Source of the DNA: Nitrospirota bacterium
GTDB taxonomy: Bacteria > Nitrospirota > UBA9217
Length of the DNA stretch: 50,209 nucleotides
Direction of reading: 5' to 3'
Assembly (NCBI GenBank): GCA_963790205.1
Contig: CAWBNQ010000012.1
Location: 1 to 50,209 of the forward strand
In this document: positions 26,428-29,847 of the stretch, one piece after another
How positions within the stretch are numbered: position 1 is the first letter of the stretch
Layout of the letters: every line of letters starts with the position of its first letter
Notes under the pieces: model-generated
Database searches by the model: none
What the model was told of the DNA's origin: nothing
Seen by the model: only the letters and a program-made list of their open reading frames with translations
Made by a program: the position numbers and the translations under genes

Positions 26428-28341
26428 TTAGTTCGTCAACAGCCGCAGCGCGCTCCCCGGCTCATGCATGGCCGCGGCCCTTGCCTCTTTCCACCTTCGC
26501 CTGAGCTTCTTCACATTCTCGCCCCTCGTCTCGCGCGTCTTGAGCTTCCTATCAATTATATCAAGTTGAGCGAGGGATCTACGGATGTCCGTCTCCAGCT
26601 TGCGATACTTCGCCGGATCGGACTTCGGAATCGAGAAGTCGCCGCTCGTTTTCCAGATGTCGCCCAGCTTCATCCACGCCGCAAAGTTTTCGATCTTTCC
26701 GCCTTCCACGATCTTGATCTTGGACGTAGCTTTTATATCCGTGACGCGAAGGCCGTTTCTGTCCGCTACGACCTTCTGACTCCCATCAAACGGTTCAGCG
26801 CCCTGGTTATCGAAATAATGCCACGTCACCCGGCTGACCTGCTCCTTTGCCTTATGGCAGCTCCCGCAGGTACGCGATTTCCCGAGCGGGTGCGCAACCT
26901 GCTCGACTTGAAGCCATGCAAGGTAGTTGTTGTTCCCGCCGGGGAAGTTAAACGTCCCGAGCTGGACATAGGCATCGTGCGTCTCGCCCTTGGGCCAGCG
27001 GAAGACAAACCCCGGCTTCGGCAGCACGGTCTCCTTGATCCCGCCCGCGCTGTTCGGCCAAATCTTCACCGGCATCCATCTGCCGTTCTGATCTTTGATC
27101 AGGATCGGCGGCCCCTGCGGGCCGTAATAGAGTGAATATTTCTTGAAGGGGTTCGGCTTGGACTCGATCAGGCCCGGCCCCCAGGAGGTCATCTCATAAC
27201 CGCCCAGGATCTTCACGTGGCAGGCCGCGCAGGCAAGGTTCTTGTGAACGCTTTTTGCCATCGCCTCTTCGACTTCGATATGGCAGTCCTGGCACGTGGC
27301 CTTTCTTTCCAGGTGCCCCATGCCTCCGATAGCTTCATGGCAATCCACGCATTCGATTTTTTTTGCAACATGTACGTCTTCGGGCAGACCAGGCGGCTCG
27401 GAGAAGTCTTTCCCGAGATAGCTGTCGCCCCGCCTCCGCTCCATGGTGCCTGAGTGGCAGACGAACGTGCTCCGTCCGCCGCCGGAACAGTTTGCCGAAG
27501 GAGGCGTTCGGCTGAAGGCGTGCACGCCCTTCTCGCGCGTGGGTGCGTAGTGGCAGTCGAGACAGCCGGCGTGGCATATGTTGCAGGCCTTCTGCTTGGC
27601 AACCGCCTGTGCGCGCGTAAGAGGCAGATTGATCTGCTCTATGATCTTTTGTGTATTTTCGAAGGAGAACTTGTCGCCTTCCGCCCTGCCGACCGGCTGG
27701 GTGTCCGCAAAGGACGGCCCTCAATTATTCGGGCCGTGGATGTCTGTCCAGGTCCGCATGGAGCGCTGCCTGAAGTTCGCGCCCATGACGCTGGTGGCGA
27801 ACTGCTTCACCTCTTCAGGATGGCAGCTTGGTTTGCCGCAGGTCTTTTGGGCCAGGGCGGGATCGTACCCGAGGGTAACGGGACTCCGGTCCTGCCACAG
27901 GAGCGTGCCTACTTCATAGTCCAAGGAACCGTCCGGAAGACGAGGCAGCATGTTCCGCTGGCGGTCGTCGCCCGAGGGAAGGAGCTGCTTTACATGATTC
28001 TTCCGGGATATGATATCGAAGTTGTTGTCCAAAACAATCAGTTTGAGCATGCCCTTGTGGGCCTTGGCGGGGTCGCTGGAAAGGCCGTTGCCGAGGTGAC
28101 AGTCGCGGCACTCGGTGTTCGGATGGCGCGCTTCCTTCTGGACCTGCTCCCGGGTCATCGTGAATTCGGGATAACCGAGGCCGGTCATCTTTACTTTGTC
28201 CGCATGGCAGGCCACGCATTTATCGCTCGATTGATACCCGCTGTACAAGAAGGCAAAAATAATCACCAGGACGAGTTGGACAAGAAGAATTGCCATGCCC
28301 GTTCTATTGCCGAAGAATTTCCAGAGTTTGCCGATAGCCAT
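26428..28341 (-). CDS. Membrane-anchored multiheme cytochrome c with an in-frame TGA at codon 207 (candidate selenocysteine), 637 aa
   Basis: ORFs 27721-28341 and 26428-27525 share a frame; the 65 codons between are stop-free and contain CNICH and CLDCH; 8 CxxCH in total plus CX4CH and CX9CH; N-terminal TM helix. Confidence 0.8.
27684..27701 (-). promoter_or_regulatory. Candidate bacterial SECIS hairpin
   Basis: CCC-A-GCC-GGUC-GGC-A-GGG, with the loop 27-30 nt after the UGA and beginning with GG, like the GGUC core of the E. coli fdhF SECIS loop. Confidence 0.55.
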
Positions 28342-28349
28342 AGTTTATC

Positions 28350-28473
28350 CAAGCACCAAATCTCAAGCACCAAATCGCAAATAAATCTCAAGGGCCACTA
28401 TGCAAACAAGACGGTTATTTGGTCATTGTGTTTTGGAATTTATTTGGGATTTGTTTACTGGGATTTGAAATTT
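28350..28473. repeat. 7/14-mer inverted arrays between radA and the cytochrome
   Basis: aagcaccaaatctc/aagcaccaaatcgc/aaataaatctc ... ttggaatttatttgggatttg...ggatttgaaattt. Confidence 0.75.
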
Positions 28474-28476
28474 GCC

Positions 28477-29847
28477 CTAAAACAGTCTCTCCATCGCCTC
28501 TTCGACCGTGCGCACGCCCATGAGCTCCATCTTCTTGAGCGAAGCGGACTTTTCCATTTTCTCCACGTTGAGCGCCGGCAGGATGCAGCGCGTAAAACCG
28601 AGCTTTGCCGCGTCCTTGAGCCTGGACTCCGCCTGGCTGATGGCGCGCACTTCTCCGGCGAGGCCCACTTCGCCCATGACCACGGTCTGGGCATGGATCG
28701 GTTTCTCGCGGAAGCTCGAAGCCACGGCCGCGATCACGCCGAGGTCAATGGCCGGCTCGTCGATCTTCAGGCCCCCGACAATATTTACGAACACGTCCAT
28801 GCCCATGAGGTGCATGCCCACGCGTTTTTCGAGGACTGCCAGCAGGAGCGAGACCCGGTTAAAGTCCACGCCGATGCAGGTCCTGCGCGGCATGGTGAGC
28901 TTGGACGGCGCCACGAGCGCCTGGAGCTCGGCCAGGATCGGCCGTGTGCCTTCGAGGGATGAAACCACGACCGAGCCCGTGGCGTCCGCCGGCCGCTCGG
29001 CGAGGAAGATCTCCGAAGGGTTGGCGACCTCGGCGAGGCCGCTTTCCTTCATCTCGAACACGCCGATCTCGTTCGTGGAGCCGAAGCGGTTCTTGACCGC
29101 CCGCAGGATGCGGAAGGAATGTCCCTTGTCGCCTTCGAAATAGAGGACCGTGTCCACGATGTGCTCGAGCACGCGCGGCCCGGCGATGGCGCCGTCCTTG
29201 GTCACGTGGCCGATGAGGAACGTCGGGATGCCCGTGCGCTTGGCGTGCAGCATGAGCCTTCCGGACACCTCGCGCACCTGTCCCACGCTGCCCGGCGCGG
29301 ACGGCAGCTCCGAGGTGAAGACGGTCTGGACGGAATCGACGACCAGGACCTGCGGCTGGAGCCCGTCGGCCGCGTGAATGATCTCTTCGAGCTGCGTCTC
29401 GGCAAGCACGTAGAGGTTGTCGGTCTTGACGCCCAGGCGTGTCGCGCGCATCTTGATCTGGGCAGGAGACTCCTCGCCTGAGACATAGAGCGCCTTGCCC
29501 CGAAGCTCCGACACCTGCCGGAGCATCTGGAGCACGAGCGTGGACTTGCCGATGCCGGGGTCGCCGCCGATCAGGACCACGGAACCGGCGACGATGCCGC
29601 CGCCCAGGACCCGGTCGAGCTCTCCGATCTTCGTGACGAAACGGTCCTCGTCCCGCGCCTGGATGTCGCCCAGGAGGAGCGGCTCAGCGCCGTCACGGCG
29701 TTTTGAGCTCCCGACGTCCTTCTGCTTCTCGACCCGCTCCTCGACCATGGTGTTCCACTGGCCGCAGTCGGGGCATTTGCCCATCCACCGCGGCGACTGG
29801 GTGCCGCAGGACTGGCATACATAGACGGTTTTGGCTTTGGATTTCAC
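28477..29847 (-). CDS. radA: DNA repair protein RadA/Sms
   Basis: C4 zinc finger, GDPGIGKST Walker A, KNRFG motif. Confidence 0.98.
   Translation of the reverse strand: MKSKAKTVYVCQSCGTQSPRWMGKCPDCGQWNTMVEERVEKQKDVGSSKRRDGAEPLLLGDIQARDEDRFVTKIGELDRVLGGGIVAGSVVLIGGDPGIGKSTLVLQMLRQVSELRGKALYVSGEESPAQIKMRATRLGVKTDNLYVLAETQLEEIIHAADGLQPQVLVVDSVQTVFTSELPSAPGSVGQVREVSGRLMLHAKRTGIPTFLIGHVTKDGAIAGPRVLEHIVDTVLYFEGDKGHSFRILRAVKNRFGSTNEIGVFEMKESGLAEVANPSEIFLAERPADATGSVVVSSLEGTRPILAELQALVAPSKLTMPRRTCIGVDFNRVSLLLAVLEKRVGMHLMGMDVFVNIVGGLKIDEPAIDLGVIAAVASSFREKPIHAQTVVMGEVGLAGEVRAISQAESRLKDAAKLGFTRCILPALNVEKMEKSASLKKMELMGVRTVEEAMERLF

Follow-up and report, generated by a model that had tools for sequence, protein, structure and literature searches.

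A ten-heme c-type cytochrome of Nitrospirota with a predicted selenocysteine and a possible role in sulfur chemistry

Introduction

The 50,209-nucleotide stretch of a Nitrospirota genome analyzed here (GTDB lineage UBA9217; GenBank assembly GCA_963790205.1, contig CAWBNQ010000012.1, positions 1 to 50,209; hereafter the window) carries on its minus strand two apparent multiheme cytochrome c genes separated by a TGA, which raises the question of whether they form one selenoprotein gene and, if so, what the residue at the TGA does. A preliminary description, made from the letters of the window, had proposed selenocysteine (Sec) at this codon. Our comparisons point to one ten-heme cytochrome in which codon 207 very likely encodes Sec, at a site where relatives carry cysteine (Cys). 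Heme selenoproteins as such are already known (MccSep, GSU2204 and the OTR family): a 2026 inventory of 119 prokaryotic selenoprotein families contains three that are heme-related, namely ExtKL, GSU2204 and the OTR family, the last with Sec-bearing members (PMC13188914, Table 1).

A single reading frame with an internal UGA

The minus strand from 28341 to 26428 reads as a single frame of 637 codons followed by TAA, with a sole internal TGA at 27723-27721, codon 207. The 206-residue open reading frame (ORF; ATG 28341) and the 365-residue ORF (GTG 27525, codon 273) both lie in this frame, and the 65 codons between them (208-272) are stop-free and hold two heme motifs, CNICH and CLDCH. The two apparent genes are one gene and one reading frame, as the preliminary description had proposed from the same TGA and the same open codons. 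Its count of 637 residues and eight CxxCH motifs was likewise seen, and its N-terminal transmembrane anchor corresponds to a hydrophobic stretch at residues 14-32 (mean Kyte-Doolittle 2.7), but the heme motif total is ten, a CX4CH and a CX9CH motif having been overlooked. Its view of an unchanged code was borne out: TGA terminates the rplD-like and gspF-like ORFs of the window and, genome-wide, 333 of 732 open frames longer than 500 codons, and the genetic code is therefore not reassigned.

Codon 207 and the hairpin that follows it

Selenocysteine decoding is indicated by what related genomes carry at this codon. The species-genome scan returned 37 loci, 36 of them labelled Nitrospirota, and among the 33 that cover codon 207 there are 30 with TGA, two with TGC and one with TGT; because TGA recurs to this extent at 65-83% protein identity, it is not there by chance. 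A wider match set has TGA in 22 and Cys in 55 of 77 matches (two loci duplicated). Among the 120 homologues listed, all 79 full-length relatives (at least 580 residues) have Cys at the site; the remainder are shorter, many of them C-terminal fragments. A distant-alignment search reached 80 loci (Geobacteraceae, Hydrothermarchaeota and others), with Cys in 79 of 81 matches, the two TGA matches being close relatives found earlier. Cys is invariant at this site down to about 30% identity (alignments of 84 and 16 sequences), and across every locus examined the stop type is TGA only, never TAA or TAG. Comparison of homologues at HGPNN-X-GP, which the preliminary description had suggested, found either TGA or Cys and leaves recoding unrefuted.

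The means of decoding are encoded in the same genome. The host (G000, 98% complete) has selA, selB, a selD with a TGA of its own, and two Rfam tRNA-Sec genes, in line with the selABCD genes the preliminary description had pointed to. In the class of 64 genomes, the cytochrome gene occurs in 54 and SelA in 55, with TGA within 43 of 46 best matches; one genome with the Cys form (G001, 96% complete) gave no SelA match. At 27721, the position singled out for a read check in the preliminary description, 39 bases of a contig assembled from a public run cover codon 207 without difference (contigs only; the run is possibly related to the source). The two tRNA-Sec genes differ from each other and both exceed the Rfam cut-off (G000:C1:656899-656993, equivalent to L245:6902-6994, and G000:C8:121701-121799). 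The C8 copy lies close to selB and selA; the C1 copy is presumably flanked by LysR-type regulator genes and next to a YedF-like gene and a formate-dehydrogenase-like cluster.

A hairpin resembling a selenocysteine insertion sequence (SECIS) follows the UGA (Table 1). All 28 TGA sequences compared agree exactly at codons 214, 216, 217 and 218, and near-frozen fourfold codons, those reaching 95%, number 4 of 5 within 214-221 versus 0 of 45 elsewhere in residues 147-336 (three frameshifted loci were excluded from this synonymous-site count). The hairpin is gone from all three Cys loci (L020, L031, L035). Two observations weigh against reading it as a SECIS element: in this first clade it is too conserved for covariation, none being shown, and the broader region around it is not unusually stable. 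In bacteria a UGA with a hairpin next to it encodes Sec, and decoding of that kind is supported here by the TGA/Cys exchange, the conserved hairpin and the Sec machinery.

We regard as extremely improbable that the TGA is a real stop, whether it separates two genes, marks a pseudogene common to the relatives or arose in assembly, or that it is read as Trp or Cys. Database entries are fragments of about 390-430 residues and an apparent frame break occurs at least once in G000 (dsrA), as a real stop or an error might leave, but a stop codon at this site is always TGA with Cys in all intact relatives, the skipped segment holds two invariant heme motifs, the hairpin occurs only with TGA, the second ORF lacks an export signal, and a tRNA-Trp(CCA) is present while normal genes end in TGA. 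The dsrA of G000 itself is found in two overlapping frames (G000:C14:63709-64855), with dsrA mostly whole elsewhere in the class, and its split is probably an assembly indel.

A second selenocysteine clade

TGA also stands at codon 207 in seven genomes from a different family (L115, L135-L140), whose proteins are 46-50% identical to the query. Their hairpin differs, with an eight-pair stem and a three-base loop, the loop again beginning with G at the same distance from the UGA; two-sided changes occur in 2 of 8 pairs, a covariation score met in 5 of 500 shuffles, from 6 distinct rows. In site-masked trees, one of which used 46 rows hand-chosen from 119, the two Sec groups fall on separate branches amid Cys forms, with Cys reversions within clade 1, and the minimum number of Sec/Cys changes on the tree is at least five. 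Two gains of Sec would be the shortest reading of these sequences; the alternative is one old gain followed by many losses. A single Sec clade, as a group defined after tree inspection, was rejected (p-AU, from the approximately unbiased test, 1e-43). Four Cys-form kin of the second clade (L091, L097, L100, L123) have PPxEV after the site, in codons that already resemble the hairpin arms of that clade and could be either the raw material for a SECIS or what is left of an earlier one.

Heme motifs and relatives

The ten heme motifs comprise eight CxxCH together with C168-X4-C173H and C285-X9-C295H, the latter two invariant or near-invariant; there is no CxxCK. U207 is the sole Cys or Sec outside these motifs. 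The preliminary suggestion of a heme ligand or redox-active site in sulfur or selenium chemistry remains an inference, which the lack of a partner Cys for U207 makes narrower. Nine conserved His/Met positions stand against ten hemes, R290, R303 and R304 are invariant, and between hemes 3 and 4 there is no invariant Lys (K249 in 66 of 84).

Table 1. Features of the cytochrome gene, in positions of the window
Feature	Position	Strand	Basis
Single gene, 637 residues, ten-heme c-type cytochrome with predicted Sec207	26428..28341	-	
Hydrophobic helix near the N terminus (residues 14-32), predicted to act as membrane anchor or signal	28246..28302	-	hydropathy; helix 13-37 in model
Module of two hemes at the N terminus (C42-H46, C78-H82), not in OTR; H73 (His/Met) and H95 are candidates for distal ligands	28096..28218	-	
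Heme 3, non-canonical CX4CH (C168, C173, H174); CxxCH in distant members; aligned to OTR heme 1	27820..27840	-	
In-frame TGA, codon 207 (HGPNN-U-GPSF), predicted selenocysteine	27721..27723	-	TGA/Cys exchange; invariant in alignments
SECIS-like hairpin, one-mismatch stem, GGUC loop (27694-27691, 26 nt after UGA)	27684..27701	-	
Hemes 4 and 5 (C253-H257, C260-H264), within the stretch that a two-ORF reading leaves out; second OTR motif aligned to heme 4	27550..27585	-	
Heme 6, non-canonical CX9CH (C285, C295, H296); invariant R290 within, R303/R304 directly after	27454..27489	-	
Hemes 7-9 (C331, C350, C371 motifs)	27217..27351	-	
Heme 10 (C492-H496); H484 aligned to His preceding OTR heme 8	26854..26868	-	
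C-terminal three-helix tail, residues ~576-636, with H626 (78/84)	26428..26616	-	model and alignment

Octaheme tetrathionate reductase (OTR) of Shewanella (PDB 1sp3) was the top match in two structural searches. The cytochrome resembles OTR in fold, and eight of its motifs follow the sequence of those in OTR, hemes 3-10 aligning one after another with OTR hemes 1-8. In both, a Sec/Cys lies in the segment that precedes the second OTR heme motif, although hhalign does not pair residue 207 with the OTR residue at NNFC/NNFU. We take this second heme to be the catalytic heme of OTR. In the cited descriptions the catalytic heme is Lys-ligated (PMC13562315), and selenoproteins of the OTR family carry NNFU ahead of their second heme motif (PMC12013277). 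Relative to OTR, the cytochrome adds an N-terminal anchor and a two-heme module, contains two non-canonical motifs, has Met186 where OTR has His, shows no invariant Lys in the heme 3-4 segment and has a longer inter-heme segment. The OTR model TIGR04315 (cut-off 375 bits) gave no match for the query at E up to 0.1; of 15 distant relatives, three reached 15-18 bits. A true OTR gene lies elsewhere in G000 (C3:1004697-1006373, 593 bits), one of 40 open frames there with at least three CxxCH motifs.

The polysulfide reductase MccSep/ExtKL (GSU2937-2936; NF040886) resembles the cytochrome as an exported multiheme cytochrome c split by UGA, with a SECIS and both Sec and Cys forms, occurring in Nitrospirota and Desulfobacterota (PMC13510729). 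As described there, however, MccSep has five CxxCH hemes, its Sec sits C-terminal to all of them within an Ig-like domain, and the iron is ligated by a different residue, Cys239, whereas the cytochrome has ten hemes, Sec between hemes 3 and 4, and no spare Cys. NF040886 (cut-off 250 bits) gave no match at E up to 0.1, the cytochrome profile scored the two ExtKL proteins at -1.2 and -1.5, and hhalign values of 43-46% equal background; MccSep was not among the matches listed in the two structural searches, whose libraries may not hold MccSep structures. Geobacter ExtKL, invoked in the preliminary description, thus serves as a precedent and not as a homologue. OTR, ExtM and ExtN appear instead to be the distant kin of the cytochrome. 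ExtM and ExtN (Geobacter ext operon; NF040943, NF040967) gave the longest profile matches of 36 multiheme templates (ExtM 98.4% over 305 columns, ExtN 97.7% over 120 columns), with scores below the model cut-offs (16.1 bits against 800 and 26.3 against 200). ExtM has no Cys aligned with site 207, and neither protein is known as a selenoprotein.

In a natural fusion of 1152 residues (P0145; L148:3565-7035), a full Cys-form member is joined to a domain with five hemes that is weakly similar to ExtKL (29.6 bits) and has Tyr at the MccSep Sec position. Archaeal Cys members from Hydrothermarchaeota (P0122, L154-L157) have a C-terminal anchor segment, which we take to be CGP-type. Two to four further distant Cys-only paralogues, sometimes in tandem, occur in L150, L174, G001, G021, G022, G026 and others.

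Proposed function and its alternatives

Our preferred reading, about as likely as not, is that the cytochrome is a membrane-anchored periplasmic enzyme of distant OTR-type fold that makes or breaks S-S bonds (polysulfide, tetrathionate, thiosulfate) with Sec at the catalytic heme, in Nitrospirota of sulfate-reducer type. U207 is probably located in a heme pocket, and given that location a sulfur substrate is likewise probable. Hemes ligated by His and Cys are the catalytic sites of TsdA (PMC5146829) and MccSep (PMC13510729), and in TsdA, a thiosulfate dehydrogenase/tetrathionate reductase, the active heme is bound by one Cys on which a covalent sulfur adduct forms, which we propose as mechanistic model. 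TsdA is diheme and the comparison is functional only; the cytochrome matched no TsdA family in Pfam and NCBIfam scans. Selenium-iron ligation is not without precedent, because Sec is the proposed heme iron ligand of a family M cytochrome P450 (preprint PMC11703216), a protein with a P450 fold and non-covalent heme that is unrelated to the ten-heme cytochrome. In the mechanism we envisage, SelB would read the hairpin and insert Sec, and the chain would be exported and receive its hemes. By way of the OTR-like chain and the two hemes at the N terminus, electrons would pass between a partner in the membrane or periplasm and heme 4, which U207 may cap as a detachable ligand, like the Cys of TsdA, or as an adjacent nucleophile. 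U207 would then attack the S-S bond, the other hemes serving as wire and the invariant R290, R303 and R304 holding the anionic substrate.

A selenoprotein that is purely an electron-transfer cytochrome, with Sec/Cys207 as a fixed heme ligand tuning redox potential, is an unlikely alternative to this enzyme, though the gene stands alone without substrate-specific neighbours, the weak kinship is to ExtM/ExtN, of putative activity only, and U207 can complete the ligand count. Against it, the three invariant Arg suggest an anion site and a switch to Sec usually goes with catalysis. The protein also has roughly 64 residues for each heme, together with a beta domain of large size, and so lies near the catalytic side of the weight-per-heme divide (PMC7096707).

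Among 301 Nitrospirota genomes there are 120 carriers, 116 of them with dsrA, against 47 genomes with dsrA only and 134 with neither; these genomes are kin, and the co-occurrence is a pattern rather than a test. A UBA9217 genome is among the closest named relatives, and reductive-type dsrAB and nitrate-reduction genes are reported for that lineage (PMC11033732). We judge quite improbable a selenoenzyme that acts on oxyanions of selenium or tellurium (to reduce selenite or detoxify) or in selenium handling, and not in sulfur respiration: MccSep also reduces selenite (PMC13510729) and some Geobacteraceae have Cys forms beside the ext operon, annotated for selenite/tellurite reduction, but just 7 of 80 distant loci are close to ExtS/P/Q-like genes, and near-core presence in dsrA-bearing lineages better fits an energy pathway. 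We are equally doubtful that the protein reduces nitrite, hydroxylamine or NO as an enzyme of the OTR/NrfA-like heme superfamily whose site is modulated by Sec/Cys. Nitrite and hydroxylamine reduction by Shewanella OTR (reported in work cited by PMC8840924), a weak profile match to an NrfA chain (residues 300-378, E 4e-7) and the nitrate-reduction genes of the lineage would fit such an enzyme; the lack of CxxCK and of an invariant Lys in the heme 3-4 segment does not, and a thiolate or selenolate over the heme would bar small anions, as argued for MccSep (PMC13510729).

Genomic context

The cytochrome gene lies between radA and the gene of a YadS-type membrane protein, with flanks that vary between families. 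The radA-cytochrome intergenic region (window 28341-28480) is AT-rich with short direct repeats, and no minus-strand promoter consensus was found in it. In some Geobacteraceae (L183:6998-15719; G311, G312) the Cys form lies near a gene for a CoA-disulfide reductase-rhodanese fusion and the end of the ext (MccSep) operon.

Implications

The cytochrome passes no model of ExtKL, GSU2204 or the OTR family, nor any NCBIfam model scanned, and no earlier description of the family was found in a literature search that did not reach every relevant source; it is a real and probably undescribed selenoprotein family. Our analysis contributes a second Sec clade with its own hairpin, a tree test, the argument from a lone Sec and the dsrA pattern. 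With no spare Cys, the cytochrome is a direct candidate for a protein whose selenium binds the iron of heme c, in a design unlike that of MccSep. Tentatively, these elements may be joined in one picture: a cytochrome c with natural selenolate ligation, whose His/Sec-ligated heme would be the catalytic site of a near-core, so far unrecognised sulfur enzyme in the periplasm of dsrAB-bearing Nitrospirota, with Sec gained twice from an ancestral Cys, each time with its own SECIS in the same coding positions.

How Sec is gained can be studied on the two separate Sec clades, whose hairpins differ. Sec and Cys versions exist at 65-75% identity, with Cys forms in cultured Geobacteraceae and cultured carriers that include Geomobilimonas luticola, Oryzomonas japonica and Geomonas limicola, and the effect of selenium at a heme is thereby directly testable. 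The family is near-core in its class and extends to 120 of the 301 Nitrospirota sampled, and a probable core redox enzyme of subsurface sulfur-cycling bacteria has been overlooked because its Sec forms are stored as fragments.
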